This document shows positions 22,501 to 53,651 of a stretch of DNA of 64,000 nt, piece by piece (position 1 is the stretch's first letter; each line of letters starts with the position of its first letter). The position numbers and the translations under genes were made by a program. The notes under the pieces were generated by a model. The model saw only the letters and a program-made list of their open reading frames with translations. It was not told where the DNA came from and ran no database searches. The DNA lies in assembly GCA_000002435.2 (NCBI GenBank), contig CM018792.1; one strand, 5' to 3'. Source of the DNA: Giardia intestinalis (lineage: Eukaryota).

Positions 22501-25500
22501 AACAGCTATCCAATGCATTAACTTTAGAATACTGTGTGATCTATTTTCAAATATACATAAGATCCTGCACTCCACTCCTTTGGATCCGCTGGATGGCAAC
22601 TACATATACTACTCACATATCTCTATGCCTGCATTTAGAGTCGGGGTTCTTCTTCGTAATCTTTCTCTTTTCCCCGTTACACGTGCAGAAGGCGTCTCAT
22701 CAATCCTTGTCAACTCTCACCTAAGGCTCTCTCGATTCATTCTCACAGAACCAGGACACTCTCTTAGGGACACACTGGCATATGCTTGCAATTTGCGGGG
22801 GCTAATATACCCACTCGAAGTTGTTGGCATACAGAGTACGGAGCAGGGCATCTTGCTGGAGATTGCGCAAACACTATCGCTAGGCTATATGCTGGTTGCG
22901 TGGATGCGAAAGCCTGTCTGCATATACATCTCTTCGTATGCGGTTCGAAATGCTAAGATTCTTGCGTCATTGGTTTCACTCCTATGTTACGGGTACTCTC
23001 CAGAAATCATGAGCACATTAACGACAATAGAGCAATACGCATTAACTCGAAAGATTCTTGGATTACTCTATGACCCATCTTATGGTCCAGAAAGATCGAA
23101 CAGTGCAATACTCAAAGACTTTAGCAGCATTGTTGATGGCCCTCTCGAACGCATAGGCATCCTTCAAATTTCTGAGGACAGTAGTCCATCACTTGTCAAG
23201 GCTATACGTGCATCTGGTCTCCGGCGCTTTCTAAGTCTTGTTGCGTTGGCTCACTTCTCAATTCCGCCAGCCTCTTCACGTGGACGAGATCCAAATCAGA
23301 ACTACACGTCACAATTGAAACTAAAACGGACAGGGGATCCTCCTATTTCAGTTCTGAACACATTGCCAGAGCTTCTGTGCTCCCCCATTGATGTTCTTTC
23401 AACAACTTCGGCAGACGTATCCCTGTCCTCCCTTTTGCATGTCTATGTGGACGTTCCCATATACTCTGATGTTCATTTGTTTCTGAAAATGGCTCACTAT
23501 AATCACATATATACCAGTAATTTGGTCTTTGCTATGCCCCCAGCTACAGAGTTCGGCCTTGTCGAACATACCCTTCGCAGAGAGCTGAGTATGGAGACTC
23601 CAGCCCTTCTTCAAGATATACTAGACGACCAGGAGTGTCTAAAGCTAGCTAAAGTATATACACACATAATCACTTATCTATCTAAAGTAGTGGATAAACG
23701 TTTATTGTTCTACTACACATCCTACTCAACTTGCGTAGAATTTGGTAAAGTTTTCAAGTCTCTGCTCTACCATAGGAGGCACACATTTACTGTTCGTCAG
23801 AAGCACTACGATCTTGCACTCACCAATCTTCGACTTGTCCATGAAAACTCTGAGCAGGCCTTAGAATCTTGCAGACGAGCATCCGCAGAGATCCAAGCAC
23901 ACTCACTTGCATTTCAAAACACTAACTTTGAGCTATCACATTTAGAAGAGGAGATTTCGGTAGTCAAACAGCGACTGTGCGTTAGAACTAATGATAAGAG
24001 GTATGCAGAAGAGACACTGAAAGAGGCATCTGAACTTCAGAATCAGTACAAGAAACAGATAGTAGTATTTCATAGACAAATGGATAGGATCTCCGATTAT
24101 CAAAATTCAGTCAATCCCATTTTATTTGCTGCAGGCTGGCAGACGCATAAACGCTTTCAGGAGTGCCTTTCTATGGCCTGCCTACACTTAGCTGCATGTA
24201 CCTCCAAGAAAGTCTCAGTTTTCGCGCTCTCAGTACCGAAGAAGGGGGCGTCAAAGCATACATCGAAAGAGATAGAGCCATCTCTGGATACATTCAAGCG
24301 GCGCGTTAGCAATATTGATGTGTTTATCAAGGAGATGATTGCACCCTCTCCCGAGGAAATAGTCAACTCTCCGCACTATCAGCTTATTAAGGACTATCTT
24401 CTGGATGCCATAGAAAGTATTTCCGGCTATAGACATACCGCCTCAACATATCTCGTGCCAATCGAACATGTCAAGGTGGAGAAGGGGGCCCAGAGTGACC
24501 TTGCTGTTCTCCCCAAAGAAATATCGACACGTCTTCCACCATTCTATACAAAAGAGAAGGCACGTTATGTTCCATCAACCATGGATCTTTTAAGGGCCTC
24601 TGTCGAAGTGCGAAGTGTCCACGTGATTGCTGATATGCTTTTCTGGATCCTCCTTTTCCAGATGGAGCTTAGTACCATGTGGATTAATGGCGCCGAGTAC
24701 AGAACGGTTATTTCTGATCAGGAAACTGCTATTTCAAACTGCGCAAATGATATTGACAGCCTGGAGCGTCAACTGGCTGCCTTTGAGTCTCGTCTTCTCT
24801 TGGGGCAAGAGCGCAAGCAGAATCTTAATGCAGAGCTAACCAACTTACGCAATAAGTATGCAGAGTCCAAAGATATGTTGTCAACAACCAGCAGCATTTT
24901 AAGCAGCATCAGCGACTTGAGACAGGCTTGGCTTGGAACTAGTGCAGACCTGAAGCTGAAATTAGACAACATTATGGGAGATAGTATTGTCATCGCCACA
25001 GCATATACCATGCTACTCCATGTCAACTCATCAACCCGGTGCAAGCACCTGGCAGGCATAGCAAGTCTCTTGGCAGACACATATGGATACACCATTTCTC
25101 CTGTTTGGACCGAGAAGGGCCTCTCTGATAGCTGCATCACTAACATGACCCTTTCAAGTAACGAACTCATGCAAATACAATACGCTGCTTTAACGTCTCA
25201 CTTCTTTGCCCCACAGGTGCCTCTTTATGAGCGTGATCTGAATATAATTCTAAGCAACACTAGCGTAGAGGTGTCTGGGGACATCAATGTGTCAGAGGAC
25301 GAGTGGCTGGGCCTAATCAACTGTTTCGGATCACTAACAGAAATCGAAGCAGACATACTCCGCCATGGAAGCACACTTATACACGAGACCTTTGTTTTCT
25401 ACGTGACTGCACTGCTATTTGGTCACCGTAACACAGCAATTCTTGTCACAGATCAGACAAGATCCCAGGGGAGGCTCCTCTCAGAAATCGTTTCTAAGGT

Positions 25501-26434
25501 AAGCATATTCCACGCATCTAGCAAAGGCTGTACACGCCCAATATTTTTGCAAACTCTCGCCGATTGTCAAAGATTGTACTCTGTAATCCAGCACTGTATC
25601 GTAGATAGTATGAGCACATTAGAGAACCAAGTCCGTGCACACGAGGACGCGATTGCTTCTATCGCTGCATCCTTGCGTGCCGATGCTATTACATCGGACA
25701 GCCCACTTGAAACGCTTGAGACCAGCTCTGTTGTTTTTCCAGTAGCCGTAGACACTACTTTTATGCATCAAACGTCTATGCACGATCTCTTATTGGGAGC
25801 ATTCCAAGTGTCTACCAGTGACAAGGGGAACATCTACAAATATGCTATTAATCGCCAATCATCATGTGTAGAAGCACTCTACAGCAAACCAGGCACACTG
25901 ACAGCGCACAGCCCCCTGAGGTTGTTTCTGACATCCCTCCACGACAAGCAGGACGTTGTTCTTTCCATCGCGAACAACCAGCTCCTGTCATTCTGTTCAC
26001 TAATAGATTTAGAGCCCGTTGGGTACCGTGCCCCTGAGATCTCGGAATCAGCTCCTACAGTCAAGGTGGTCTTACAGAGACCTGTCTCGGACTTCACTTA
26101 TCTTGATTACACCAGCAATCTTATCACAGTGGAAAAGCCGGTGGTCTCGATGTATCGTGTAGACTCAGAGCGTATCTATCAGGAGGTGTCTCTCTGTGGG
26201 TATGTCCTTTCCATTGTTGATGAAGCTATAGTTGACTTTATGTGCACCTTACAATCCAATGCCGACGTCCTTAATACCTTGACCAACAAAATGCTCCAAC
26301 TGGTGTTATCGCCCAATAAGGTGCCGTTTCTTGAAGCCATCGCCGAGGTCCACCAGCAAATGAAGATCGTCACTGCCATGGTCATCCGCCTCAAGAAGTG
26401 TCTCTTCTTGAAAATCCACATGCCTAGAAGGTGA
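10592..26434 (+). CDS. Giant hypothetical protein (5281 aa), Leu/Ser-rich and probably alpha-helical, with coiled-coil segments near the C-terminus
   Basis: A single uninterrupted ORF of about 15.8 kb. The first in-frame ATG is at 10592 (the track start at 10568 is a TTG). I could not recognise a P-loop, kinase, FATC or any other motif. Every antisense ORF within it is shorter than 135 aa. Confidence 0.7.
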   Translation: MLPAAHAAEDLLLLLQHPAERRITALPGYSCVTALGRHSSSEVVFCSEEEGQVTFTPERPAPPFSFLFYKSQDAAPAVLLGCSSCQEQTSLLSTILIIFTAVYKQSARFQTQQLYPLYEQFYRLLRLDPLLVQSSVLVDLLEHSPHIDLPAALDAPLVYRYEMGVRHYFSNILHLWALEASNLLSFSQGPRVYDGPSTNTKCAYGTPEYSVFVPRIKSFIDSMRKHIKLTGFSYTDCFNLIILEKLAQMPSLFSFILTGSQKHSHLLSIKRYIDQALDDKTSVFHKMICILAKSNSHSVGEFNRLSYFSQKQAGALKSALQLAIALLPYVLVIHRVSTSYYHIVHSDIQEELSLDLLSDAFFTAICNRLTESKEPAAYDLIAYSLGSDITLAVQHAIGPDHLFATNILLYRRNLGSALRFLDRLGSVLPESPKLTTRISQLRLRCQDLLDLSMWQYQYNTALGIIKTSVYEFPPSLLTILEETVKTIQLFIPDSYSTSETEPTSNFTYALTLLPTEGAFDWLPFLLQGLGSEHVVSAWPKNLVNSSSLDKLSGSGSYYPICGRYKPTNTTEQSCQRAVKAAIQGGRPTPTSRSTSGRKKPILRLTLDVDDLQASNTIGSSLSVSSFSHVAEAPVKSITRREKSMFKYNHPKRKLVTKSLTLATLFKHNFQVMQSIIHRADFNCIHSISVGLQRLAPSLVPTFEGGREIQSATPPILPLHLGRHIIAVRTLLERQAIFAALSPLLLQFILASISFLFYIKRNVLKSFFNIIHLDQYYPCVLFIEHHYKHCVILAYMVCCFGTVLLRFVAWKATESPLLSTVTEEFLSRVTSHGLLDVMLYLSSQLLELLRVSLPTRTHCRLGDYPYKHIASLSQKLPCPEFLTFLWLFDQVFAALKAMRDDCYQAWSSALNQTAEKLHDIMTSVPISVASQAGNLVSYSIGNIDPLPNFIRSCHLYQVSTASQMFSSSDEGTNDHPFNVLYDLLNKKHDEQDNFQTVLLNFKEDLLNCGPTVKHGAWILPPISPQLSQASLSLFRFCISTSILHKHRRLESLLNEHRSLYTRLHQSHLWTLVREQCVQVDALFKSYLSNPAFIWQTTDTMEQFLQDLSASIQLLSSQTHTLSTITANLRNSLMSYAPALKKRINLPITQPLAPVSEFLASSRSWSNDQLPDSIVVHILNDILSQESELGDTPKYFIPKFAEVIQYHEYLSFGSMVLADTDLCNNNTDGDGLNQQISLFINTCNQIEERIYLFKRSIESQLDSYCKEVELLRASSELSDELLLALFNDLSLTLHELAVVWMLYLYLLSSPKTPTLLHVATTLIGDKLYTSPALGSLSEIPQAITDLLSLLSLHKTIDQQSMTPELQNIYSWAETLIHADPLLLRLSESIEDRALTAVLHTVTGRLAIWVISVIQIPLLIDRVLEKLPEMKSSFHNLCSKSTRPARFDCEYSALNQYLPLNLLFSDTSIVHYYKFDGLLFHIAKLLFFCYSKGYEQFDGITSTISASHAQLSNLKQSEDIVLMDLHTHQSASLFLENLLGYLGDILHIQASIDHIPSTKQFNRFFAEFLRFKTFITEKESRISVITCGLYLLRSTGLSEPLISQASTIVKELSSPILFNLYSILNLYLDALSRVEKECYTHLKHALGQLDDSRSLIIEYRYYPVIPSTLEPAALIRTVYLLRSIFKVDALRKLYEQINNRSQVLILYMQKNGIDIEPVFKQSTEKILALQGAINITYEKVKYLVDSTRASLLAYTVSANDALMTALHDFLSFRALDHRESLSLALQSAIKQRALTGAHVRNLYVHGSRILLFLEDSLVRIRHVYSKLCYHYELCYLQGIYGPAIFVKTAHDMLGFIRRSIEGTEFPNYLRLIASYQVIWGRLCQVADRLLYYEDKPIALFYDSYTEIMALLKDSYTLRRQVTLDNAVFLEFLSWYEDLLHILQEELLSIINLKDFTPEQWQDLIYHIGHVTQSSKCMALCTLDSETQLTLGNVLLLKLNTHPDILRGKISMALVSSAVSTKVTNAISHWSDLNTTDFIALVRELSDMMECTGLEHCLFANSIVKGRAADIYVEQYFDAHDLLSLSIIQRSAEELVRGMLQSTSLKASHTALLLEHLETFRAVADMECSERSFPMLTCCQVYLRTILDVGLVSAVFVSTLSQLYNFLIAYSYIGHEDCLNPFTAWTLEDEVSKCLTVLFHILSIHKYILELYDNNLQFKRYLLSDMIEDSSKTVEDIEAVLAFLHGQKVLQKKDRFSVENFNIFCGRLTSYFVPIRLCAFSMPLYQAEEALKLEDHTSSPSQEPSNNSSSKTCLKDVSIYPLMILLCVALKAVMVTIIDSVKDSLPHPSLEQSSETSYITDYAVTEIRKAIIPYNLFCLFSKGLNVCVTLNTLLSLSKIDPLLNGIVSGDLSFSNPNHKFFLQALSEASGSESTSDAAEADVSNCSLFRTALLSTFCNPFLKRLLAGYQKLITSSEDQNIIIGYWCDFPSESPMIFYQPVNLCAVNRWICTSECCNLHPLWLAVISVFHAYEETLRIGSLLALRELRALCSLSLSVDLCTNPSANDEDHAKGVYLTYGYCDLDAYQYEFVPFQAMYIGARLFLSTLCLFQHDYTGRASIISSTSNDFLIYICALVQKHMSIITELPLQLLMLQKEGNSETQLLTRLIDLPSMQWKSAMLWLLFEDFCEKLKASETTLQVLRDRALSGGKASIDPDFIARDLLQKLVSDNVLFLQMELSIFPGQAMSLLNSLDISFSPSKAASRGIMYCASSSPNGVVIARSLFAQIASSIPSLPMIDLIRVYSPTLSVTRSYLNGLLTAASCQSMLLYGLQFISLVRSIFQTILFSDESQVHRKQSVQFFVAHQAQQVLTEIASVLCFSNTQNKQPSASVLSACSHEAVTQRYSLILVPIDSKWETFQRQDLAVCGSDQSFNRNVSVDKQSDQSHIYRACVEIANLIRDPSNGKVTCRNLERALAKFLYHLLAGTTIESAEKFLYLSIDELLRTLAPLSLIGIRRVAEHNTMSVLFDSKVFMMHAQSILQQMVSMDLDERLLQCMDPLLDWLVQLVMRLRYLFIVASPLNAVVLCGPVFSYVHVLPWIFFRALKSSGFPTCYSSEQSEHLSKEAQDYAFLSIHSLRLSSDRSIREVISLYASEQPCYRTILMLTTESLTDEQRDICHRYGIPILNTARPIADANDFKHLELLSLYTNLHAWCCPIYPRINGTWSFTPSPFSLISMRHDTSSALESQAELKEVQQQDPESMTESSERLQSMYLSINHQRKLLAPRIVHSFIELSGVYRDLVEKAVSSTALCTYYRYHAITGALSIVLAILDTLLMDPCIRVNILRLETKYFHAIVVFSCSWAYAALPIKSHRNVDLKSDCASAPASQAESFLYVDSSIRKKSPLLLKTVPRTLHTRQAVIDSAQISWPVFLSNALGSLVLTKIGCHASNIYDFVPAVRVENKVIVDALVTTSLCLEHRSWPELAQTPRALVPQIVVTLCQLYAGERLLSADAGLSHIEFSALSAHISHFYSLGVYSLPAQRCLGILSNVFIIPGAQPVRRTATPESNSKRRLTPLQIVHCAFYPLSRDPTSKAGDATNLTLRSGDPEFCPLVVAAIPIFLTPSSQQHKAYSYAKTSSQILYIFDHHPPRQHIQRLHHPASMVLLQDTYPGSQQADSRFTFMTPRINSTVHTLVFQLFQPLASTLPLSCDQDAYIILIQLTLQAIQDYRGPAEHHHSLNTMLEILAPVQSLLEGFVLNEKITRNVYRSLAHEELVSTSEPLLTPSLAIFAWLLSTVDFYTSCFSKSFYDSPERSSFSELKDFYGSLLSLASFKASKVASTDADPGTFLSSSVKSFGTMELLEFYETYPLFAISLGHTNLFLPLRLRNISTFPIRTGSNTMTGILSNFAAHAQKLEEVVTHSVPPLDSSMFLRLLGLQKYQQFLLANNTSLPLPCPVTKSSEQAESSTSIDVGTICTTAIQCINFRILCDLFSNIHKILHSTPLDPLDGNYIYYSHISMPAFRVGVLLRNLSLFPVTRAEGVSSILVNSHLRLSRFILTEPGHSLRDTLAYACNLRGLIYPLEVVGIQSTEQGILLEIAQTLSLGYMLVAWMRKPVCIYISSYAVRNAKILASLVSLLCYGYSPEIMSTLTTIEQYALTRKILGLLYDPSYGPERSNSAILKDFSSIVDGPLERIGILQISEDSSPSLVKAIRASGLRRFLSLVALAHFSIPPASSRGRDPNQNYTSQLKLKRTGDPPISVLNTLPELLCSPIDVLSTTSADVSLSSLLHVYVDVPIYSDVHLFLKMAHYNHIYTSNLVFAMPPATEFGLVEHTLRRELSMETPALLQDILDDQECLKLAKVYTHIITYLSKVVDKRLLFYYTSYSTCVEFGKVFKSLLYHRRHTFTVRQKHYDLALTNLRLVHENSEQALESCRRASAEIQAHSLAFQNTNFELSHLEEEISVVKQRLCVRTNDKRYAEETLKEASELQNQYKKQIVVFHRQMDRISDYQNSVNPILFAAGWQTHKRFQECLSMACLHLAACTSKKVSVFALSVPKKGASKHTSKEIEPSLDTFKRRVSNIDVFIKEMIAPSPEEIVNSPHYQLIKDYLLDAIESISGYRHTASTYLVPIEHVKVEKGAQSDLAVLPKEISTRLPPFYTKEKARYVPSTMDLLRASVEVRSVHVIADMLFWILLFQMELSTMWINGAEYRTVISDQETAISNCANDIDSLERQLAAFESRLLLGQERKQNLNAELTNLRNKYAESKDMLSTTSSILSSISDLRQAWLGTSADLKLKLDNIMGDSIVIATAYTMLLHVNSSTRCKHLAGIASLLADTYGYTISPVWTEKGLSDSCITNMTLSSNELMQIQYAALTSHFFAPQVPLYERDLNIILSNTSVEVSGDINVSEDEWLGLINCFGSLTEIEADILRHGSTLIHETFVFYVTALLFGHRNTAILVTDQTRSQGRLLSEIVSKVSIFHASSKGCTRPIFLQTLADCQRLYSVIQHCIVDSMSTLENQVRAHEDAIASIAASLRADAITSDSPLETLETSSVVFPVAVDTTFMHQTSMHDLLLGAFQVSTSDKGNIYKYAINRQSSCVEALYSKPGTLTAHSPLRLFLTSLHDKQDVVLSIANNQLLSFCSLIDLEPVGYRAPEISESAPTVKVVLQRPVSDFTYLDYTSNLITVEKPVVSMYRVDSERIYQEVSLCGYVLSIVDEAIVDFMCTLQSNADVLNTLTNKMLQLVLSPNKVPFLEAIAEVHQQMKIVTAMVIRLKKCLFLKIHMPRR

Positions 26435-30789: not shown

Positions 30790-33165
30790 CTAATTATTTT
30801 GAGACCAGCTCTTTGCAATCTTACGTAGCTCATCTATAGACGAAAGGACCCCCGGCTTCAGCCCAGCCAGGCGTTGCGTGAAGCGAGAGGGAGTATAAAA
30901 ATCGTCCGAAATCAACACGCAATCGAAGTCTCCAAGCGCAGGAGTCCAATAGGCTGAGTTGAACGGACTGGGCTCTGGGATTGCCGAGTCGCCCGTTGCG
31001 CGGTAGGCAGCGCTGACGTCCCCTGGCGTAACGCCACCAATCATATAGATGTAGACCTTCTCTCTGCTGCGATAGGAGCTTATCTCATGCTTTTCTAAAT
31101 AGGTCTGGAGCTCTTTGCCCTCTGGAGACTCTGGATAGTACTTTGCCGCCGCGTTGGACACATTGGAAACAAGCACGTCGCGCTTAACAGGCGCCCCACG
31201 TCGCCTACGCTCTACCATGGCCAGACTCTGGTTCTCTGCCACAGGGAAGAGACTCTCGGCTGTCTGTGACAGAGGGCTATCGTTGAACGAGCGGAAGATA
31301 CACTCGAGGGCGGGGAGGTATCGGGACTCCTCGATTGCTTTGCTTAGAACACCCTTATGAACTGGACTCTTCTTCATCGCTTGCCACAAGTGAATAAAGT
31401 CATACGTAACAAAGGTCTGCAGGAACCCAGTCCACAATGCCCGAAAGTCAGCATCCTCATCCAGCCGCCAGAGCCGCGAAACGTTATAGTTAAGGTTGAT
31501 CAAATCGCGGAGAGGCCTCCCGTAAATAGATTCAGAGAGGCCCCTATCTGTTTGACCAGACTTCTCCAGTATTAGAACAGTGTACATGTAGAGACGAAGG
31601 GCAACTGTGGAGTCCGTGCTCGGGGATGACAGTGTCTGAAGGATCTCTGTAATAGAGACTTTCTCTGGGCCAACTGCTATAGAATCCAGGTCAGAGATGC
31701 GGTCTCCGTTGATCAGAATGTCAAGCAGGGTAGACTCTGCTGCTAGAAGGAGCGGGAGGTACCCCTTGGCCTCTATTTCATCTGCAAACTTCTTAATAAT
31801 AGTGAAGACACCATTCATTTGAGCGCTCAGCGTCATATATGGCACGTTGAAGATGGAAGAATCCACCAGGCTATATGACGGGATCTTCATCACTCGACCT
31901 GCGTGGCGCCCGTAGTTGACGGGTATTTCTTTGGGCTTAGTCATCATGGTAACTGAGTCTCTATCCAAAGGGTCAAAGCTCCGGAACACCTTGATAATAT
32001 CCTTCTGCCACACAAGAAAGTTGGCCATGCTCATGAACCTGAAGCCGTTCCAAACGTCCGATGATTCAGAGAGATCTATCTCAATCAAATTCGCAGCCTT
32101 TTTCTGAGACTTTGCAATCTTAGCGTCGTTTGGGCTGCACGGCTGGCCAGTTGCGGCATCTGCTAAGTATAAGTCATCATTGATATCTAACATGTCAGGC
32201 AGGAAGGAGCCGACGAGTGTGTGGTGAGCAACAAGGGAAATAGGGTCAAACGCCCTGTCTACTATGATTATTGTGCTGTTAACACACGGATAGCTATTGT
32301 TATACGGTGCAACTGGGGTAAGTTGCAGCTTCTTGTTTAGGGCCTCGGCGATCTCCTTGCAAAGCGAAAAGTGCGACTCTCGTGCAACTCCTTTATAGTA
32401 GCGTACCTCTGGTGGACCCATTTCTAGGGAATTAAATAAAGACCACAGCTTTTCGACTGTAGTGGAGATGTATTGCTTCTTAATAGCCTGATACGTATCT
32501 GCATTAAACTTGTGCATGCCATAAGCTATCAGAAATGCTTCTGGCTGGTTGAGATTGATAAACCTGTTCCACCTAACGGTGAAGTCGACATTGAAGCTCA
32601 TGACACCTGCCTTAGAGAGCAAGTCTACGAGCCCAGACGACTTCACAAAGTTCTCTGCATCGGCTGAAAGCGGACCAGGTGTGAGTATGAACAGACCCTT
32701 GTACTTATACGGAAATTGGACCTTAGAGCCTGAGGGGCCACAGCATCCCTTCTTAGCCTGCTTTGCTTCCGCAACACTTGCGCTGAACGACGACACATGG
32801 GTGCTTCCATTGACGCCCCAGCCAAAGTCCCGCGCTACCATCTCCATCGCCTCTAGGGTCGTAGAGACCATATACACCCCAAACATGGCTGGCTGTGGAG
32901 TGCGGGTCTTTTCCAAAGAATCCTTCAGAACAAGGCGATACTCCGTTAAGATCGAGGTAGTGAAAAGAGACCCGATAATAGGTAACGTATAGCTATCTAG
33001 GATCAAAATACCGTAGATGTTATTCTTCTTGAGGAAACTTGCAATCTTCTCAAAGTAATGTATGATCAGATAATCTCTCAAGAGAGGGCGGATCTGTTGT
33101 GGATATTGACAAAAGAAGCGAAAGATCGGATGTTCATTCGGGCCTGAGATCACCTCGGCACTCAT
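30790..33165 (-). CDS. Sec1/Munc18 (SM) family vesicle-fusion regulator (about 791 aa from the first ATG)
   Basis: The N-terminal SM signature is YGILILDSYTLPIIGSLFTTSILTEYRLVLKDSLEKTRTPQPAMFGVYMVSTTLEAMEMVARDF. This matches the family pattern vLvlD..t..ils.....L...gv.lve.l...R.p.p...AvYfi.Pt.eni..l..Df. The C-terminal signature is KVYIYMIGGVTPGDVSAAYRA, matching the vFviGGvTysEi pattern. The track start at 33333 is not an ATG. The first ATG is MSAEVISGP at 33165-33163, which also avoids a 150-bp overlap with ADAT2. Confidence 0.7.
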   Translation of the reverse strand: MSAEVISGPNEHPIFRFFCQYPQQIRPLLRDYLIIHYFEKIASFLKKNNIYGILILDSYTLPIIGSLFTTSILTEYRLVLKDSLEKTRTPQPAMFGVYMVSTTLEAMEMVARDFGWGVNGSTHVSSFSASVAEAKQAKKGCCGPSGSKVQFPYKYKGLFILTPGPLSADAENFVKSSGLVDLLSKAGVMSFNVDFTVRWNRFINLNQPEAFLIAYGMHKFNADTYQAIKKQYISTTVEKLWSLFNSLEMGPPEVRYYKGVARESHFSLCKEIAEALNKKLQLTPVAPYNNSYPCVNSTIIIVDRAFDPISLVAHHTLVGSFLPDMLDINDDLYLADAATGQPCSPNDAKIAKSQKKAANLIEIDLSESSDVWNGFRFMSMANFLVWQKDIIKVFRSFDPLDRDSVTMMTKPKEIPVNYGRHAGRVMKIPSYSLVDSSIFNVPYMTLSAQMNGVFTIIKKFADEIEAKGYLPLLLAAESTLLDILINGDRISDLDSIAVGPEKVSITEILQTLSSPSTDSTVALRLYMYTVLILEKSGQTDRGLSESIYGRPLRDLINLNYNVSRLWRLDEDADFRALWTGFLQTFVTYDFIHLWQAMKKSPVHKGVLSKAIEESRYLPALECIFRSFNDSPLSQTAESLFPVAENQSLAMVERRRRGAPVKRDVLVSNVSNAAAKYYPESPEGKELQTYLEKHEISSYRSREKVYIYMIGGVTPGDVSAAYRATGDSAIPEPSPFNSAYWTPALGDFDCVLISDDFYTPSRFTQRLAGLKPGVLSSIDELRKIAKSWSQNN

Positions 33166-33181
33166 TTTTTGTTTTGACGAA
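33166..33181. promoter_or_regulatory. A 16-bp AT-rich bidirectional inter-ATG spacer (ttttttgttttgacga) between the divergent SM-family and ADAT2 genes
   Basis: The two start codons are only 16 bp apart on opposite strands. The spacer is a T-rich run, which fits the very short AT-rich initiator promoters of diplomonads. Confidence 0.4.
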
Positions 33182-33691
33182 ATGGAAGAGTGTTTTAAGG
33201 AAGCGAGCCTTGCACTCGCAGAGCGTGAGGTTCCCGTCGGATGCGCCATCGTTGACAGTGCTGGCCGCATACTTGCTACAGGGAGAAACGCAACTAACAA
33301 GACGCGTAACTCCACGCACCATGCAGAGATCATGGCATTGGCTCAGTTACCATCTGGCACAGATCTTTCTGACTGTGTGCTCTATGTAACCATCGAACCC
33401 TGCATTATGTGTGCTGCTGCCCTCTCAATTGTGGGCCTAACAAACATTATTTACTTCGCCCGCAACAGCAAGTTCGGTGGCTGTGGCTCGGTACTAGATG
33501 TAAATAACCACACAGCACGTCCGTGGACAAAGCTGAATGCCAAGTATGTACCTGACGAGCGTGCAATCCACTTGCTGCAGGAGTTCTTTGAAAGGAAGAA
33601 CCCTGTGACAGCAGCATCAGACCACGGCATAGATGAATTAGATTATTGTTTGGACAGGGAACCCCGATTGAAAAATCAAAGTACAATTTAG
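33182..33691 (+). CDS. ADAT2: tRNA-specific adenosine deaminase (Tad2/ADAT2, CDA fold)
   Basis: The sequence EVPVGCAIVD...GRN...HAEIMAL...LYVTIEPCIMCAAAL...YFARNSKFGGCGS carries the HAE and PCxxC zinc-binding signature. It matches the TadA/ADAT2 family end to end. Confidence 0.85.
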   Translation: MEECFKEASLALAEREVPVGCAIVDSAGRILATGRNATNKTRNSTHHAEIMALAQLPSGTDLSDCVLYVTIEPCIMCAAALSIVGLTNIIYFARNSKFGGCGSVLDVNNHTARPWTKLNAKYVPDERAIHLLQEFFERKNPVTAASDHGIDELDYCLDREPRLKNQSTI

Positions 33692-33797: not shown

Positions 33798-35621
33798 TTA
33801 TGCTAACTCATAGACACTATACTTTGCAGTCCAGGGAGCAGAGTTGGTTGGCGCGGACCGGGGGCGCGTCTGCTGTGACTTCAAGATACGCTCCCTGTAG
33901 GCACCTGGCTTCACCAGTCGGATACTGGCATAATCAATGAATCCACCGGACTTCTCGGCGAGACGGACCTGGCCATATAAGTCATTTGGGACGGCTTTCA
34001 GCCGCTCCTGGGTCATGCTGGAGGAACCCTTAAAGTCTATCCGTTTGTGTGGTCTTTGAGAGTGTGATATTACCGCAAGCGCCTTCGTGAATCCATCTTC
34101 TTCACCATGTAAAGGCTTTCTGTTGATCACGCTGGCTGCCTGTCGTATCACATCCAGTTTGTTCTGCCGAAACGTTTCGCGGATCTGTTGCGTTATAGCC
34201 TCTGTTTGGTGCTTCACCTTGAAGCTGGTATCTCTAAATGATTCCGCACTGTGCCGAGTCTCCTCCTTCTGTCGTGCCACCTTCTCCTTTATGGTACTAT
34301 CATGTGCATTCAAGATCATTCGCTTATAGCTATCCATCCTCTCAGCCCGTTCCTTTCTCCGCTGCTGAATCTCAGCTTCAAGGTCAGCCTTCAACTTAGC
34401 TACCTTAGCAACCCTATTGCAAGCACGTAGGCGCTCGCTCTTCCGCCGGGAGAACAAAGCGTCTTCTTCTGCTATCTTCTGCTTTTTTTGGAGGAGCTGA
34501 AACTCCCGTTCTTGTTCAAGATTTTTCATTCGCTTTCTCTGGGCTTCACAAGCGGCCAGGTGGGCATGCAGGATTGTCTCCTTTCGAGATTGAAGCATGT
34601 CATTTCTGCGTTGCTCAGCTAGTGCGTTCTTTTGCTTAAGCTCGGCACGCTGCTGCTCTATCTTCTGCAGATGAAGTTGGTCTGCTCGCATAGATGCAGA
34701 GATCAGCCGTGTGTTCAGCTTTTCTGATTGAAGCATCCGCTTAGTTTGCTCATTGTTCTGCAAGGTTTGCAAGCGATTGTCGATCTCTTGCTGTCTCGCA
34801 AGAAACCGGTCCAACTGTTGCATACGTTCCGCATCCTCTTTCCTCCGCTTAGCTTCAATAATTTGCTGCTGCTTTCTGTGCCTACTAGCCTGCAAGGCTG
34901 CTTCCTTACGCCGCCTGCTCGTTGCCTCCTTGAGATTTTGCTCTGTGCTTTTCATTTGTAGCTGGTACTTACGTAGCATATCTAATGAGTGCTCATCAGC
35001 AATCTTCTGGGCTTCATTGTATCGCTCCATTGCTACCTCTTGCTTCTGGAGGAGCCTCTCCATCTTCTTAGCTATCTCTTTTTGCTTAACCTGCTTATTC
35101 TGATCTACCAGGTTCGCACTTACTGACATGCTCTCGTTTATCTTGTCTTCGTTCAATACAGTTTGTACTATTTCTGCCATGCAACGCTTGCGCCGCGCAA
35201 CCTGCTTAGCTATTAACCGCTGCTCCATACCGTCCGGGGAATATCGCCGTTGAATGGCTTCTAGAGCATTACAAACCCTAGGATCCTTAGTTCTTGATCT
35301 GGGAAGAAGATTGGCAAGCCTTGGAAATGCAATAGACTCGGCTAGCGTAACGCCGTTATCGCAGATCTTTTGGAACTCGCTCAGGCAAGCTGCCAGAGCC
35401 ATAGCTCTATCCTTTTCATATGCTTCGAAGATGAGTTTGCGCTTTTCCGGATCACTCTCGTTTATAGAGTTTTCTTGGCAAAAATTTAGCTCTTGTGGTA
35501 GAACGCCAACGCGCTGGCACGCAAGAATGGAGCGTGGAGAGTCTAGTTCAATGTCATCGATCCGCGCCTTGGCATTTGGGATTATTTGCAAAGATGTTAC
35601 CCCCTTGTAATCCGCGGTCAT
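33798..35621 (-). CDS. Hypothetical coiled-coil protein, K/R/E/Q-rich (608 aa from the first ATG)
   Basis: The middle section is a long run of charged heptads (EAKRRKEDAERMQQLDRFLARQQEIDNRLQTL... and similar). The track start at 35681 is a TTG. The first ATG is MTADYKG at 35621-35619. Confidence 0.55.
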   Translation of the reverse strand: MTADYKGVTSLQIIPNAKARIDDIELDSPRSILACQRVGVLPQELNFCQENSINESDPEKRKLIFEAYEKDRAMALAACLSEFQKICDNGVTLAESIAFPRLANLLPRSRTKDPRVCNALEAIQRRYSPDGMEQRLIAKQVARRKRCMAEIVQTVLNEDKINESMSVSANLVDQNKQVKQKEIAKKMERLLQKQEVAMERYNEAQKIADEHSLDMLRKYQLQMKSTEQNLKEATSRRRKEAALQASRHRKQQQIIEAKRRKEDAERMQQLDRFLARQQEIDNRLQTLQNNEQTKRMLQSEKLNTRLISASMRADQLHLQKIEQQRAELKQKNALAEQRRNDMLQSRKETILHAHLAACEAQRKRMKNLEQEREFQLLQKKQKIAEEDALFSRRKSERLRACNRVAKVAKLKADLEAEIQQRRKERAERMDSYKRMILNAHDSTIKEKVARQKEETRHSAESFRDTSFKVKHQTEAITQQIRETFRQNKLDVIRQAASVINRKPLHGEEDGFTKALAVISHSQRPHKRIDFKGSSSMTQERLKAVPNDLYGQVRLAEKSGGFIDYASIRLVKPGAYRERILKSQQTRPRSAPTNSAPWTAKYSVYELA

Positions 35622-35697
35622 ATGAATTTTTTGAATTTCTTTTTCAATCGCCTGGTTTGCTTCGCTCTTGCACTCTTGCAACTACAGTTTCATCTCA

Positions 35698-49145: not shown

Positions 49146-50138
49146 CTACACGCTCAACGAGATGTCTACTTGGCTTTGCTGAGTCCCCTCTGGCGCAGCT
49201 TCCACAGAAATAGGTGTTATGCGGCAACAGGTAGAGCTGGAAGGAGAAAGAAAGTACCCCGTCAGTGATCCGATAATACCTAAGACAGGGATTGCAATCC
49301 AAGGGATATATTTGTACTTGAATATGATCAAGGACGCAAACATTCCATAAACATTACAACTTATGAGACTGATATTGAAAACAACTGCACCGCCGTACTT
49401 AATCACTAACGGGAGAACACTGTACATCACCACGAGGCTGACGAGATATCCTATGATATACCACCACGGCCGAAGGGTCGCCAAAATCTGGATGTTGTCT
49501 GCCTCGAAACAGAGAAACAGAATAAGCGCGAGAGAAAAGGCGCCGATGCTGAGCCTGGCAAGGAATTGGACAGGTGTATATGAGCCTATGACGAACTCAT
49601 TTATCACGGATGTGAGCCCGTAGATAAAGGCTGAGGCTACAGCAAGCAAATCTCCAAGCACCCTGTGTTTTGACTCGTCGCCCATAGTGTCAAGAATGAC
49701 AAACAATATCGCGAACCCCGTAGCGAAGCAGGAAAACATCACTTGCATCCACGAGAAGCGCGCTTTCGTAATGATCAACGAGAGGATCATGGAGAAGGGC
49801 GTAGAGAGACAAAGAATGAGTAGAACGGCGCCGACAGATGTGTAAACAAATGACATTATGGCAAGGCTGTTTGCTGTGATATCTAGGATCCCAGATAGAA
49901 GAAAAAAGCCTACATCGCGGGCACGGTGGACGAATAGCTTGTGAACGGAAGGCAGTACCCATAAAAATAGAAGCAGCCCGTAGAAGAGCATAGACTGCAA
50001 GAAGGGTACAGAGACGTTAATCCCTGACAAAAGGTCGTTAAACACGCCACTTGCAGAGTTCCCAATTGCACAAATCTGACCAAGCACCACCGCTAGGACG
50101 AATTTGCGCGAGCACCTGCAAGGCGTGTCGCAGTGCAT
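49146..50138 (-). CDS. Multi-pass membrane transporter, SLC35F-like (drug/metabolite transporter superfamily)
   Basis: The protein is 330 aa with about 9 hydrophobic helices. TM1 reads VLGQICAIGNSASGVF. The sequence LAVASAFIYGLTSVINEFVIG is typical of the SLC35F/EamA fold. The ATG at 50138 is real, is preceded by tttgataataa, and lies inside the 3' end of the SPO11 CDS. Confidence 0.5.
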   Translation of the reverse strand: MHCDTPCRCSRKFVLAVVLGQICAIGNSASGVFNDLLSGINVSVPFLQSMLFYGLLLFLWVLPSVHKLFVHRARDVGFFLLSGILDITANSLAIMSFVYTSVGAVLLILCLSTPFSMILSLIITKARFSWMQVMFSCFATGFAILFVILDTMGDESKHRVLGDLLAVASAFIYGLTSVINEFVIGSYTPVQFLARLSIGAFSLALILFLCFEADNIQILATLRPWWYIIGYLVSLVVMYSVLPLVIKYGGAVVFNISLISCNVYGMFASLIIFKYKYIPWIAIPVLGIIGSLTGYFLSPSSSTCCRITPISVEAAPEGTQQSQVDISLSV

Positions 50139-51199
50139 TTATTATCAAAGTTGCATATTCGTTTGCGAACCCCGACAACAGTTTCAACTACGTAGGAGAC
50201 TAGCCCACCCTCTTGTCCAAGAATGGTCTCCAGCTCATACTGCATGCCGAGAGCCGCCAGATTCTGGACTTCATTGGCCCACTCGAGACGGCCCAGCGCA
50301 GTCAGTCTGGTAATCAGTATATCATACAGCTTCAAATCTGCTGGATCGCAGTGGCGGGAGCCCTTAATTGCTTTTGACGACCGTTGGATGTGACTGTTAA
50401 AGACGCCAATTGGCACCAATGACGGTGCAATATAGTGATTAGGGACCACGCTTTTCCTAGTTGCCGAGGCAGAGCCGTAGGCATACGTGCACAGAATGTT
50501 CATTCCGTGAGCGTCTCCATCGGCAAGACCGAATATGGGGATTCTGCAACTGTCTAGAAAAGAAACCAGGGCGCGTGTCGCCGCATCGGGGTATCCTTTG
50601 CCAGTGATCACCATAAAACTTTGACCCAGCCTATCTTTGATAGCTTCGTAGCTGTCAATAAGGTGCTCAAATACCGTATCCTTTTCTATTACGAGTACAA
50701 ACTGCGCGTCTGTGTGTATTTGCTGTAAGTAGAAGAAGTGCGGGCTGATGGGCACGGCCACCAAGCTGGAAGCTGTGACTGTTCCTACCTGAGTGACCAT
50801 AGTACAGTTCCCAAGCAAAAGCCCCTTGGCAGCTGCCCGATAATGCATCATTTCGCGCTCTATACTATATCCGAAGCAAAATTCTGCGATTAATACATTG
50901 GATTGTATCTGCGACCCATATAGCGAAGGAGCAGTGTAATACAAACTGCGAATGTTGACAAAGGTCTTCTTAACAACAGCGCATGCAGACTCTGCTATCA
51001 TACGGAGGGCGCGTGCGAAGCGTAGAGGGTGTCTCTTAAAACTGATACCCTTCTTATCTTGCAAGTCTTGCTCGCTCATTGGTAAGATCAGCCCCGCAGC
51101 ACTAGACTCTACTTGCTCATAGAGCTGTAATAGAATCCTCCTGTATAACTCTAAAATAGCTCGGTCATCCTGGTGCCCCAGCTTATCAATATCGCACAT
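50093..51199 (-). CDS. SPO11: SPO11 / topoisomerase VI subunit A-like protein, the meiotic double-strand-break transesterase
   Basis: The catalytic Tyr motif is NIRSLYYTAPSLYGSQ. The Toprim domain has QFVLVIEKDTVFEHL...FMVITGKGYPDAATRALVSFL...IPIFGLADGDAHGMNI, which includes the catalytic Glu and the DxD. The track start at 51208 is a GTG. The first ATG is MCDIDKL at 51199-51197. Confidence 0.85.
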   Translation of the reverse strand: MCDIDKLGHQDDRAILELYRRILLQLYEQVESSAAGLILPMSEQDLQDKKGISFKRHPLRFARALRMIAESACAVVKKTFVNIRSLYYTAPSLYGSQIQSNVLIAEFCFGYSIEREMMHYRAAAKGLLLGNCTMVTQVGTVTASSLVAVPISPHFFYLQQIHTDAQFVLVIEKDTVFEHLIDSYEAIKDRLGQSFMVITGKGYPDAATRALVSFLDSCRIPIFGLADGDAHGMNILCTYAYGSASATRKSVVPNHYIAPSLVPIGVFNSHIQRSSKAIKGSRHCDPADLKLYDILITRLTALGRLEWANEVQNLAALGMQYELETILGQEGGLVSYVVETVVGVRKRICNFDNKCTATRLAGARANSS

Positions 51200-52529
51200 G
51201 TCAGACACCAGATTGTTGATTAATCAATACAAATTTGCTGTAGAAAACCTGAAAGTATCCTGTAGAGTCTCTTGTAACAGACAAGTCAGTGAACAGCAGC
51301 TACTAGCACGATGGGTGCAAAGCCTCAATCCAGCATGCATCCTCACAGACGACAACATATGCACTACACTAAGGAACGGGGAAGCGTTACTAACCATCCT
51401 TGCTCTAGTAGACAGCGCTCATATTTTAATTCACGGGCAGGCAAAGAAATCTAGGTCTAGAATTGATGCTCTTCGCAATCTTGATGTCGTTCTTCAATAC
51501 ATATACAATGGAAAAGCCCCTCTCTTCGTACATTCAGAGTCCCTCTACACCACGGTGGATCCTAAAAATTGGTGGCACATTCTCTCTGACGCTTTCCACA
51601 GACGGGCATATTTACCTCTTAAGCGACGGGAAAGCAATCTAGTGTCGTTGTTCCACCCTGCAGACAAGATATCCTTCCCTCTCAACAATGGCTCACCTTC
51701 GCCTGTGGATCCTCAGGTTTATACCTTCTTACTGTATAATTATTTTTTAGTTCCCTGCGACTTCCTTTCCCTGATAACCCTGCGTCCCAAAAATATTAGT
51801 CAAATTAAATTAAACTGGTCAATCATCACGCTCGTATTGAATCTACATGGGATTAAGTTAATCTTCACACCCGACGAGCTAACACAATTGCAAATGACAA
51901 ACGACCGTAGTAGCAATAGTAAGATTTGTGCGTACATGTCAGAATATATGCTTCTCTCTCTGCTCGATACCCTGCAGGCACGTGCGAAGACAGCGCCACC
52001 TGGTGAGGGAGAGCTACTTGGGCCGCTGATTCGAAAACTACGGCATGAACATCCTGATAGAAAGTTCTACTATTGCTTTTCCGATTACTTTGTAATTATC
52101 CACTTTAATACAAGCGCACGCTCTTCACTAGAATATGTGCCCAAATCTCATAAGCACGTTGTTCTAAATATGCTTTCTCTGAACCGATGCACTAAGTGTG
52201 TAACTATCCCTTGCACTGCAGACCATAGGTTCTTCCTGTTCTTTGCAAAAATGGTTCGTAATCCATCTGGGAGCGACTTTGGTACTGACACAGCCAAGTG
52301 GACAGATTGCTCCTTGATACTATCCCCCGTGTGCCTGTTGGTGGTGACCTTATTAGACGATATATTTATTCCTTTGGCGTGGATTACACAGATTCGGACA
52401 AAATCTTTCCACCAACACCTCTTACTACTGTTCAAAGAAGCGATATCTGGCCTTTCTTCTTTGCTGCTTTGTTTGGAAAGCGGCGATTTCTCGGCCTTGG
52501 TGCACCAACTAACTGCTATAATTACTTAA
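51198..52529 (+). CDS. Hypothetical protein (443 aa)
   Basis: The ORF track shows a long ORF. The only ATG usable as a start is at 51198. It shares 2 nt with the SPO11 ATG on the other strand. I found no recognisable domain. Confidence 0.5.
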   Translation: MSDTRLLINQYKFAVENLKVSCRVSCNRQVSEQQLLARWVQSLNPACILTDDNICTTLRNGEALLTILALVDSAHILIHGQAKKSRSRIDALRNLDVVLQYIYNGKAPLFVHSESLYTTVDPKNWWHILSDAFHRRAYLPLKRRESNLVSLFHPADKISFPLNNGSPSPVDPQVYTFLLYNYFLVPCDFLSLITLRPKNISQIKLNWSIITLVLNLHGIKLIFTPDELTQLQMTNDRSSNSKICAYMSEYMLLSLLDTLQARAKTAPPGEGELLGPLIRKLRHEHPDRKFYYCFSDYFVIIHFNTSARSSLEYVPKSHKHVVLNMLSLNRCTKCVTIPCTADHRFFLFFAKMVRNPSGSDFGTDTAKWTDCSLILSPVCLLVVTLLDDIFIPLAWITQIRTKSFHQHLLLLFKEAISGLSSLLLCLESGDFSALVHQLTAIIT

Positions 52530-52549
52530 CAAGAAACAAAAATTGAACT

Positions 52550-52945
52550 ATGAGTGCCACAGACGAGGAGCAGGAGCTTGAGCTGCTTAGGGAGATGCTA
52601 CGAACCAAGAAGGCGTACGGATCCATATACCCTGCTCGTCTCAAGGAGCTCAGCGCCCGTGAACTCTACGACCTAGCGAAGGTCGATGAGAGCCTCTTTG
52701 AAATAAAGCAACCTCCACCCCTTGAGATTCACACTGCAACTCACGATACAGCGGTCATAGCAGATCTTCTGCAATCCATGTCATCTTACCCTCGCATTCG
52801 GGACATAGCATTTCCTACTTCCAGCGCGAGTATAATGAGCTTTCTATTGTCTGATAATCAGCGTCCAAGTGCAACTACTGAGACTCCCAATGAAAACCAG
52901 CGGACCAACACGGCTGGCTGCATGCAAGAGAGCGCTGGGATTTAA
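52550..52945 (+). CDS. Small acidic hypothetical protein (131 aa). It could instead be a 5' leader or a frameshifted N-terminal extension of TRM10.
   Basis: The ATG at 52550 follows the A-rich stretch acaagaaacaaaaattgaact. The stop codon is at 52943-52945, which is 1 nt before the TRM10 ATG. Confidence 0.35.
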   Translation: MSATDEEQELELLREMLRTKKAYGSIYPARLKELSARELYDLAKVDESLFEIKQPPPLEIHTATHDTAVIADLLQSMSSYPRIRDIAFPTSSASIMSFLLSDNQRPSATTETPNENQRTNTAGCMQESAGI

Positions 52946-52946
52946 A

Positions 52947-53651
52947 ATGTTTTCTGCAACTGTGTCTTGCGAACTCTCTCCCGGAACCAGCGGGCCTAAA
53001 AAGCAAGGCAGGGCCTGGAAGCACATTAGGCAACAATTGCGGACTCGCTTAGACTCCGCCCCGGCTATTCTTATTGACTGCTCTTATGATGACTTGATGA
53101 AGCAGGGAGAGATCAAGTCTCGAAATTCGCAGCTTATTTTTTGCTACGCCACCTCAGTCAAAAAGGACGTGGAGCGCCCTCTGCGTCTTTCGGTGGTTGG
53201 AGCGACAGCTTCTTTGTCCGACTTCCTTCAAAAAGTCCAACTGGAGGGGTCCTGGTCTGCGGACATCACCACCAGATCCTTGGAAGACCTTATTGAGACA
53301 GGAGAATTAAGTGCCCATAGGTTGGTTTACTTGACTGCAGATGCTGAAGAAGAGATTGATACGTATTACTCAGGAGACACTTACATAATCGGTGGTTTGG
53401 TGGATCGAAACCGACACAATGGGATAGCTTTTCGTAAGGCACAGAATATTGGGATACGCACAGCAAAGCTTCCGCTGCACAAATATTGCAACTTGATAGG
53501 GAGTGCCGTTTTATCCGTCAATCACATCTTTGCCTTTATGACATATCTGCATTGCGGCTTACCTTTCGAAACAGTGGCAAAAATGGTCATTCCTCAGCGA
53601 AAGCTGAAGGTAGTAGAGAGCACAACTGATGATTCAAGAAGCAACTCATAG
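52947..53651 (+). CDS. TRM10: tRNA (guanine9-N1)-methyltransferase Trm10 (SPOUT class)
   Basis: AILIDCSYDDLMKQGEI matches yeast IEIILDCSFDELMNDKEI. VYLTADAEEEIDTYYSGDTYIIGGLVDRNRHNGIAFRKAQNIGIRTAKLPLHKY matches yeast [54 protein letters not shown]. An alternative ATG at 52890 would overlap the upstream small ORF by 56 nt. Confidence 0.8.
   Translation: MFSATVSCELSPGTSGPKKQGRAWKHIRQQLRTRLDSAPAILIDCSYDDLMKQGEIKSRNSQLIFCYATSVKKDVERPLRLSVVGATASLSDFLQKVQLEGSWSADITTRSLEDLIETGELSAHRLVYLTADAEEEIDTYYSGDTYIIGGLVDRNRHNGIAFRKAQNIGIRTAKLPLHKYCNLIGSAVLSVNHIFAFMTYLHCGLPFETVAKMVIPQRKLKVVESTTDDSRSNS

Follow-up and report, generated by a model that had tools for sequence, protein, structure and literature searches.

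Apparently interlocked start codons of Spo11 and a divergent gene in Giardia duodenalis, with a putative two-way control region inside coding sequence

Introduction

Core promoters in Giardia combine two degenerate AT-rich elements, an initiator-like (Inr-like) one at the site where transcription starts and, ~30 bp further upstream, a TATA-like one; these elements are defined by their AT-richness and position, are interchangeable, and are inherently bidirectional (Teodorovic et al. 2007, PMC1885649). Giardia transcription start sites follow a symmetric consensus rich in A and T, of the AAATTAAAAAA type (Tolba et al. 2013, PMC3792122). Bidirectional AT-rich promoters of this kind, exemplified by the 153-bp spacer between ran and phd (PMC1885649, PMC3792122), are the closest described counterparts of the locus considered here: the junction, in a 64-kb window of Giardia duodenalis (intestinalis) WB (the whole stretch of DNA analysed), between Spo11 (GL50803_15279) on the minus strand and GL50803_10758 (hereafter 10758) on the plus strand. 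Our reading, to which we assign a probability of roughly 0.6, is that this is a head-to-head gene pair of G. duodenalis without intergenic DNA, in which translation of both genes starts in a conserved CATG and the divergent control region is embedded in coding sequence.

The junction shares several features with bidirectional promoters of the ran/phd type. The divergent region is very short, and its only recognizable signals are degenerate AT-rich Inr-like and TATA-like patches, ~30 bp apart, in either direction (PMC1885649, PMC3792122). The genes lie head to head, with Spo11 read from the minus and 10758 from the plus strand, in a synteny retained in all five lineages of G. duodenalis that make up our conservation set (the WB window, L001, L002, L004 and L006). 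Possible candidates for the Inr and TATA-like pair of each direction are one 22-nt block for Spo11 (−17 to −38) and two patches for 10758 (−15 to −6 and −56 to −39). Unlike the ran/phd type, the Spo11/10758 spacer measures −2 nt, which would place all promoter elements in coding sequence, and its AT-rich block lies to one side of both ATGs and not between them. If transcription starts in this block, the Spo11 5′ untranslated region (UTR) would be about 15–30 nt long, versus the 1–14 nt usual in Giardia.

A second point of reference is the regulon of the encystation factor Myb2, whose verified motif, CWACAG, is centred on average 41.5 bp upstream of encystation-induced start codons (Rojas-Lopez et al. 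2021, PMC8700996). Spo11 resembles members of this regulon in having a sense CTACAG centred 41.5 nt upstream, equal to the published mean, with a second box at −66 to −61, induction at 14 h, and an entry in the published motif table (PMC8700996). It differs from them in standing outside the 19 targets confirmed by chromatin immunoprecipitation (ChIP) and knockout (Kim et al. 2022, PMC9547401). The Spo11 boxes also differ in lying inside the neighbour's open reading frame (ORF), one of them over Cys-Arg codons, and in that the box at −44 is exact in only two of the five lineages.

Overlapping transcription is also known from the compact genomes of microsporidia and nucleomorphs. As in these compaction overlaps, the loss of intergenic DNA at Spo11/10758 would push the signals of one gene into the coding sequence of its neighbour; overlaps elsewhere are mostly 3′–3′ or same-strand, whereas Spo11/10758 is a 5′–5′ overlap of start codons that is kept in the G. 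duodenalis complex. Bidirectional promoters of the CpG-island and yeast kinds have hundreds of base pairs of non-coding spacer and defined factor sites. Joint induction from one short region would be common to those divergent pairs and to Spo11/10758, which has no non-coding DNA. In G. intestinalis itself, transcript overlap has been reported for 81% of tail-to-tail gene pairs (PMC3610916).

Results

The two start codons interlock inside ACATGT (51196–51201, both strands). The plus-strand ATG occupies 51198–51200 and the minus-strand ATG 51199–51197, with 2 nt in common, and the junction reads ...TATCGC ACATGT CAGACACCAGATTG TTGATTAATCAA TAC...; a script reproduced all coordinates and letters of this arrangement, which had been proposed in a sequence-only reading of the window. 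The CATG core is invariant and the plus frame that begins there is open in five of five lineages, and for this reason we regard the interlock as more than chance; the start-codon overlap looks real and old. Because CATG is conserved, alternative ATGs are missing and Spo11 codons 11–40 are under coding-type constraint, both genes most likely start at the interlocked ATGs, in line with the earlier claim that neither has another plausible start. In-frame Met codons of 10758 fall at 1, 233, 247 and onward, which bears out the stated absence of another Met for ~230 codons; those of Spo11 fall at 1, 41, 67 and onward, and with the conserved Tyr-Tyr at 87/88 a start at the next Met would cost about half of the region ahead of the catalytic position, again as described. 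Such starts leave no intergenic DNA, and the promoters must therefore lie in coding sequence. Each core promoter would thus sit inside the first codons of the other gene, as the sequence-only reading had anticipated, and on the Spo11 side this fits a published 300-bp construct (PMC8584520).

The DNA at the junction varies in one further respect. In the divergent lineage L002, positions 3001–3012 (orthologous to 51197–51208) hold an extra in-frame Spo11 ATG three codons upstream (MSDM...), which would give an 11-nt ORF overlap; WB has GTG at that position (51208–51206). In several lineages Met-Ser-Asp would open both proteins, from the same near-palindromic DNA.

We then considered what the 10758 reading frame says about its start. 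The gene (51198–52529, plus strand) encodes a hypothetical protein of 443 amino acids that is 100% identical to GL50803_0010758. Its body, codons 33–440, diverges by 0.26/0.18/0.42 at codon positions 1/2/3, as expected under purifying selection, and because residues 33–232 are in addition strongly conserved, they must be translated. The frame that begins at the interlocked ATG is continuous with this conserved protein in five of five lineages, and WB, L001 and L002 have no further ATG ahead of the conserved body; in WB, to judge from the sequence, the ATG at 51198 alone permits translation of residues 33–232. Codons 1–32 (51198–51293, plus strand) form a fast-evolving leader whose DNA would also be the 5′ UTR and core promoter of Spo11. 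Divergence in the leader shows no third-position excess (0.37/0.43/0.38 in codons 2–19 and 0.43/0.32/0.29 in codons 20–32). The 57–63 nt leader contains no stop triplet in frame 0 in any of the five lineages, and the other two frames together hold 4, 3, 5, 6 and 5 stop triplets per lineage. When leaders were evolved neutrally on a star tree with the divergences observed, all five stayed open in 1.8% of the simulation runs (P = 0.018), or in 3.4% (0.034) when WB and L001 were counted as one lineage, and a 6-nt insertion in the L006 leader preserves the frame. The leader thus appears to be kept open while its amino-acid sequence is barely constrained.

The same leader could be explained differently. 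Its first ~19 codons may be untranslated, an ancestral divergent spacer of ~55 nt that is open and in frame fortuitously, with translation starting near codon 20 as would be possible in L004 and L006, and with WB showing a non-AUG start, gene decay, or a product truncated to Met233. Codons 2–19 lack a third-position excess and evolve faster than ~95% of the 18-codon windows of the body, and an ATG occurs at codon 20 in L004 and at codons 15 and 21 in L006. A ~55-nt spacer would fall within the 29–88 nt range of the other head-to-head pairs of the window and would put the AT-rich block at its centre, and curators have cut similar longest-ORF extensions at 35622 (from 185 to 160 amino acids) and in a Sec1-family gene (from 847 to 791). 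Calls of metagenome-derived 10758 orthologues likewise begin 17–19 codons later; the ‘starts’ called in L001 and L002 are GTG, from a prokaryotic gene caller, and these two lineages, like WB, offer no ATG until codon 233 or its equivalent, so that the conserved and selected body would go untranslated. The codon-position test does not discriminate here, since codons 20–32, present in the calls of all gene callers, are just as unconstrained. A fortuitously open spacer is also at odds with a frame 0 that is stop-free everywhere against ~12 distinct out-of-frame stop positions, with the simulated neutral probabilities of 0.018–0.034, and with the in-frame 6-nt indel. Further, Giardia ribosomes are reported to be non-scanning and to use very short leaders (PMC3610916), and a transcript from the AT-rich block would therefore reach no usable AUG in WB. 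On this evidence we consider an untranslated leader unlikely, and we retain the ATG at 51198 as the probable start of 10758.

The Spo11 side of the junction depends on which of two gene models is correct. The minus-strand ORF (50093–51199, ATG at 51199–51197) encodes a Spo11/Top6A-like protein of 368 amino acids with matches to Pfam TP6A_N, the 5Y-CAP/winged-helix domain that holds the catalytic Tyr (PF04406, 1.2e-08), and to the TOP6A-Spo11 Toprim domain, which has the DxD motif (PF21180, 1.5e-24), and Y87/Y88, E172 and D227/D229 are invariant across nine Giardia-type Spo11 sequences, which identifies it as a Spo11/topoisomerase VI subunit A protein. The older WB annotation has the 368-residue form, as does GenBank AAP35104/AAQ24511. 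The current RefSeq/GiardiaDB model (KAE8303900.1/XP_001706588.2) has 328 amino acids, begins MSEQDLQ, and starts at Met41 (51077–51079, minus strand), which is probably not the true start. Xu et al. introduced this truncation among 626 adjusted starts, in a re-annotation that drew on orthologue alignments, start motifs and RNA-seq (PMC7000408).

If Spo11 did start at Met41 (51079–51077), there would be no overlap, and the 120 bp to the 10758 ATG would be an ordinary divergent spacer. In favour of this model, beyond the evidence types used in the re-annotation, Met41 is kept in all five G. duodenalis lineages. Against it, Spo11 codons 11–40, aligned across those lineages, have a clear coding signature, with divergence of 0.25/0.15/0.45 at positions 1/2/3 and 70% amino-acid identity, the same pattern as in the remaining codons (0.15/0.09/0.46). 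The upstream Met and the open frame are retained in five of five lineages, and the first 40 residues can be aligned with Spo11 of G. muris and of two other Giardia-like sources, which have Ile or Glu in place of Met41 (Ile in G. muris). The A-rich motif expected before a start is not found in the sequence ahead of Met41, and the RNA-seq of the re-annotation came from trophozoites and is uninformative for an encystation-expressed gene. Moreover, Chang et al. amplified spo11 cDNA by reverse transcription PCR with a forward primer, CACC-ATGTGCGATATTGATAAG, that starts at the 51199 ATG, and take the protein as 368 amino acids (PMC8584520). Owing to the coding constraint, the kept upstream Met, the G. 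muris alignment and the cDNA amplified from the 51199 ATG, the 368-residue model is probably the better one, and a start at Met41 seems to us quite improbable.

At its other end, the Spo11 stop reaches 46 nt into the following ORF on that strand, an SLC35F-type transporter (49146–50138; overlap 50093–50138), and L001 is alike. In other lineages the Spo11 C-terminus is 15–20 residues shorter and the genes as called do not overlap.

We next located the published Spo11 promoter on the window. Spo11-HA expressed from the construct pPSpo11, with 300 bp of 5′ flank, increases as cells encyst, and spo11 mRNA is up about 9-fold at 24 h of encystation (PMC8584520). The primer spo11NF is the reverse complement of 51479–51499, and the published flank is thus 51200–51499, wholly within the 10758 ORF. 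Within this flank, the first 16 nt upstream of the Spo11 ATG are not AT-rich; they are followed by an AT-rich block, TTGATTAATCAATACAAATTTG (51216–51237, minus strand; −17 to −38), a candidate TATA-like/Inr-like core promoter element. The AT fraction of −40 to −13 is 0.79, the highest among 31 ORF upstream regions in the window. Beyond the block stand two Myb2-type boxes on the minus strand. The first CTACAG (51238–51243; −44 to −39) is exact in WB and L002 and has one mismatch in L001 and L004; the second (51260–51265; −66 to −61) overlaps 10758 codons 22–23, is exact in four of five lineages (L006 has CTACAA), and the overlapped 10758 residues C22 and R23 are invariant. Both boxes fall in the ~200 nt upstream of the ATG where members of the Myb2 regulon carry the motif, preferentially ~40 nt from the start. 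With 94 CWACAG sites on both strands of the 64 kb, two sense sites within 70 nt have a probability of ~0.001. Both boxes have already been catalogued by other groups: GL50803_15279 is listed under ‘14 hours’, motif present in WB, in Table S3 of PMC8700996, and Chang et al. note that the spo11 promoter has MYB2 and WRKY sequences (PMC8584520). The main text and supplements examined of the Myb2 knockout and ChIP-seq paper (PMC9547401) hold no entries for Spo11 or 10758. No Rfam family matches in 49000–53500, and RNA of the Spo11 strand shows no unusual folding where it spans the junction (z = −0.18).

The AT-rich block contains a perfect 12-nt palindrome, TTGATTAATCAA (51216–51227, both strands), which equals its own reverse complement and lies, as first described, 17–28 nt upstream of the first base of the Spo11 start codon; its core, GATTAAT, is semi-conserved AT-rich sequence (−18 to −28 of Spo11). 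The sequence-only reading had noted that it sits where an initiator or Myb-type element would be expected and had suggested a possible bidirectional regulatory site. The AT-rich character stands, with a GATTAAT-like core in the AT-richest segment, and such a core fits, as far as sequence goes, the degenerate TATA/Inr-like AT-rich elements of Giardia (PMC1885649, PMC3792122). The Myb-type assignment does not hold, as the palindrome has no match to CWACAG and the Myb-type sites are the two CTACAG boxes further upstream. Nor does its standing as a distinct regulatory palindrome survive, given its chance frequency and its symmetry in WB only. Perfect 12-nt palindromes number 11 in the window, compared with 15.0 ± 3.9 in first-order Markov simulations, and it is no surprise that one of them should fall less than 30 nt from any of ~30 gene starts. 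The orthologous 12-mers in the four other lineages (TCAATTAATCGA, GTAATTAATCGG, CTGATTTATAAA and TCAACTTATCAA) break the symmetry at 2–5 positions, and what is retained on the Spo11 strand is an AT-rich core, GATTAAT, TATAAAT or GATAAGT.

In favour of a specific bidirectional site at the palindrome, bound by a dimeric factor and controlling both Spo11 and its neighbour, are its position in the AT-richest upstream segment of the window and the joint induction of the two genes; its core ATTAAT resembles the symmetric AT-rich start site consensus, and some Giardia loci fire both ways from one nucleotide (PMC3792122). We nevertheless hold such a site to be highly improbable. Besides a palindrome count at or below chance, a dyad missing in four of four other lineages and the unmatched Myb2 motif, a search of the window for further copies of TTGATTAATCAA found none besides the one, even with 1 mismatch allowed (18 of 100 shuffles gave a match with up to 1 mismatch), and a plus-strand transcript from this point would be without the only usable ATG of 10758. 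The palindrome is better regarded as incidental, the WB version of an AT-rich core-promoter block.

On the 10758 side, two AT-rich patches on the plus strand are candidates for its core promoter: TTATCAATAT (51183–51192; −15 to −6 of the ATG), inside Spo11 codons 3–6, as a putative Inr-like element, and TGTATAACTCTAAAATAG (51142–51159; −56 to −39), inside Spo11 codons 14–19, as a putative TATA-like element. Their spacing fits the Inr/TATA-like scheme. Within 51142–51159 the motif TC.AAAAT is invariant in five lineages; the same DNA encodes the conserved Spo11 peptide ILELY, and the conservation of the 10758 patches appears inseparable from that of the encoded peptide. In the published motif table, GL50803_10758 appears under ‘14 hours (no motif in WB)’ (Table S3 of PMC8700996), and in agreement with this the CWACAG nearest to 10758 is 219–224 nt upstream (50974–50979). 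By these listings, the two genes are up-regulated at the same 14 h time point of encystation.

10758 has no direct Pfam match, even at E ≤ 10. A profile search of 1.84 billion proteins returned one credible distant relative, the 467-residue protein P0018 of Dysnectes brevis (E 3.1e-4), which carries a Pfam calponin-homology (CH) domain (1.5e-12). An hhalign comparison aligned 10758 residues 34–231 (51297–51890) with P0018 at 95.8% probability (E 7.8e-9), and the 10758 profile weakly matches the CH region of beta-spectrin (E 0.026). The AlphaFold2 model, built on five sequences, is too poor for fold testing (predicted local distance difference test score 37). From these alignments, residues 34–231 appear to contain a divergent CH region, possibly in tandem, and 10758 is probably best viewed as a CH-domain-like protein of fornicates whose N-terminal leader is variable. 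This only detectable distant relative comes from a free-living fornicate. We also considered 10758 as a TopoVIB-like Spo11 partner (TOPOVIBL/MTOPVIB/Rec102); Pfam, PDB sequence and the 1.84-billion-protein profile searches gave no match, the N-terminal half aligns to a CH-domain protein instead, and the idea was dropped. No main-text mention of GL50803_10758 was found in the literature searched.

Outside the G. duodenalis complex the arrangement changes. In G. muris, a same-strand gene of 106 amino acids precedes Spo11 and overlaps it by 4 nt, and the head-to-head arrangement is not kept; 4-nt, ATGA-type same-strand overlaps in this species (in L007, one gene ends at 4004 and the next starts at 4001) are a compaction of a like kind. 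In another Giardia-like genome, a divergent gene of 577 amino acids lies 83 nt from Spo11 and the interlock is not kept. The interlocked arrangement is specific to the G. duodenalis complex; as neither of these two genomes keeps it, they offered no further test of its conservation.

The head-to-head pairs of the window put the junction in perspective. Counted from first-ATG ORFs, their spacings are 88, 0, 78, 49, −2 (Spo11/10758), 29 and 67 nt, plus one 152-nt overlap, and the pairs with 29–88 nt spacers typically have a central TTAAA-type patch common to both genes. At the 0-nt pair, a minus-strand ‘Trichohyalin’ gene of 607 residues and the plus-strand gene GL50803_0031833 have abutting first ATGs in CATATG (35619–35624); RefSeq cuts GL50803_0031833 from 185 to 160 amino acids, and its first 25 codons cross an AT-rich stretch. 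The longest ORF of the Sec1-family gene (30790–33333, 847 amino acids) overlaps a divergent cytosine deaminase (33182–33691) by 152 nt (33182–33333); the RefSeq model has 791 amino acids, and the Pfam Sec1 match begins only at residue 109. Spo11/10758 differs from these two RefSeq-trimmed pairs because conservation argues against shortening either gene. Elsewhere in the window, a 131-codon ORF (52550–52945) overlaps on the same strand the start of a TRM10-type tRNA methyltransferase ORF (GTG at 52869, ATG at 52890, end at 53651), which is called as 230 amino acids without overlap in another lineage, and a single ORF of 5,280 codons (10592–26434) takes up a quarter of the window.

Discussion

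Taken together, these observations are consistent with a compact divergent control region of ~110 bp around CATG that would be entirely coding. The Spo11 core promoter would lie within codons ~7–23 of 10758 and comprise the AT-rich block at −17 to −38 and the two Myb2-type CTACAG boxes, with the WB-specific palindrome falling in the TATA/Inr-like block by happenstance. The N-terminal leader of 10758, some ~32 residues that precede the CH-domain-like region under little constraint, would be free to carry DNA signals as long as it stays open. In the opposite direction, the 10758 core promoter would reside in the AT-rich patches within Spo11 codons 3–19. Both genes are reported as induced in mid-encystation, and their mRNAs would necessarily be complementary at their 5′ ends. 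On this account Spo11/10758 would be an extreme but ordinary case of the compact two-way promoters of Giardia, with Myb2 boxes added as in other encystation genes.

Several points weigh against this account. The A-rich stretch typical of Giardia starts (PMC7000408) precedes neither interlocked ATG, and the curated reference annotation picks Met41 for Spo11. The 10758 leader has no codon-position signature, so that its translation rests on frame conservation and absent alternative ATGs, and the ATG near codon 20 in L004 and L006 would leave an ordinary spacer of ~55 nt. Knockout and ChIP together confirmed 19 targets of Myb2, and Spo11 is not one of them (PMC9547401). Transcript 5′-end entries for GL50803_15279 or GL50803_10758 were not found in transcription start site sequencing (PMC3792122), strand-specific RNA-seq (PMC3610916) or long-read data (PMC9014877). 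Finally, the induction of 10758 could reflect sterile plus-strand transcripts off the Spo11 promoter and not full-length mRNA; plus-strand transcripts from that block would be without the only usable ATG of 10758.

A bolder extension is that Spo11 and 10758 form a selected, co-regulated unit, in which the leader is kept open as a Myb2-responsive promoter, the complementary 5′ ends couple expression, and 10758 takes part in the mid-encystation nuclear process of Spo11 (diplomixis or recombination), the whole having been kept since the common ancestor of the assemblages. We view this extension as speculative and give it little credence.

Earlier papers had already reported a Myb2 motif upstream of Spo11 and shown its 300-bp flank to be sufficient. 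As far as we found, the start-codon interlock, its conservation across the species complex, and its masking by a probably wrong truncation of Spo11 have not been described. The truncation matters in its own right: the 328-residue reference protein probably lacks 40 conserved N-terminal residues, the 368-residue model is the one used in functional work, and the Met41 start conceals the overlap from computations on intergenic regions or promoter motifs.

The arrangement would also bear on genetic work at this locus. Replacing spo11 or tagging its 5′ end changes the DNA just upstream of the 10758 ATG, its likely promoter, and edits in the first ~70 bp of 10758 would change the Spo11 promoter. Where spo11 was exchanged for a pac cassette by CRISPR (PMC8584520), the DNA directly upstream of the 10758 start, its probable promoter (51100–51199), was removed as well, and we infer that phenotypes of spo11 disruption could partly reflect loss of 10758. 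More broadly, the locus would show the extent to which a eukaryotic RNA polymerase II promoter can be folded into coding sequence, and it may serve as a small, conserved test locus for how Giardia chooses the direction of transcription.

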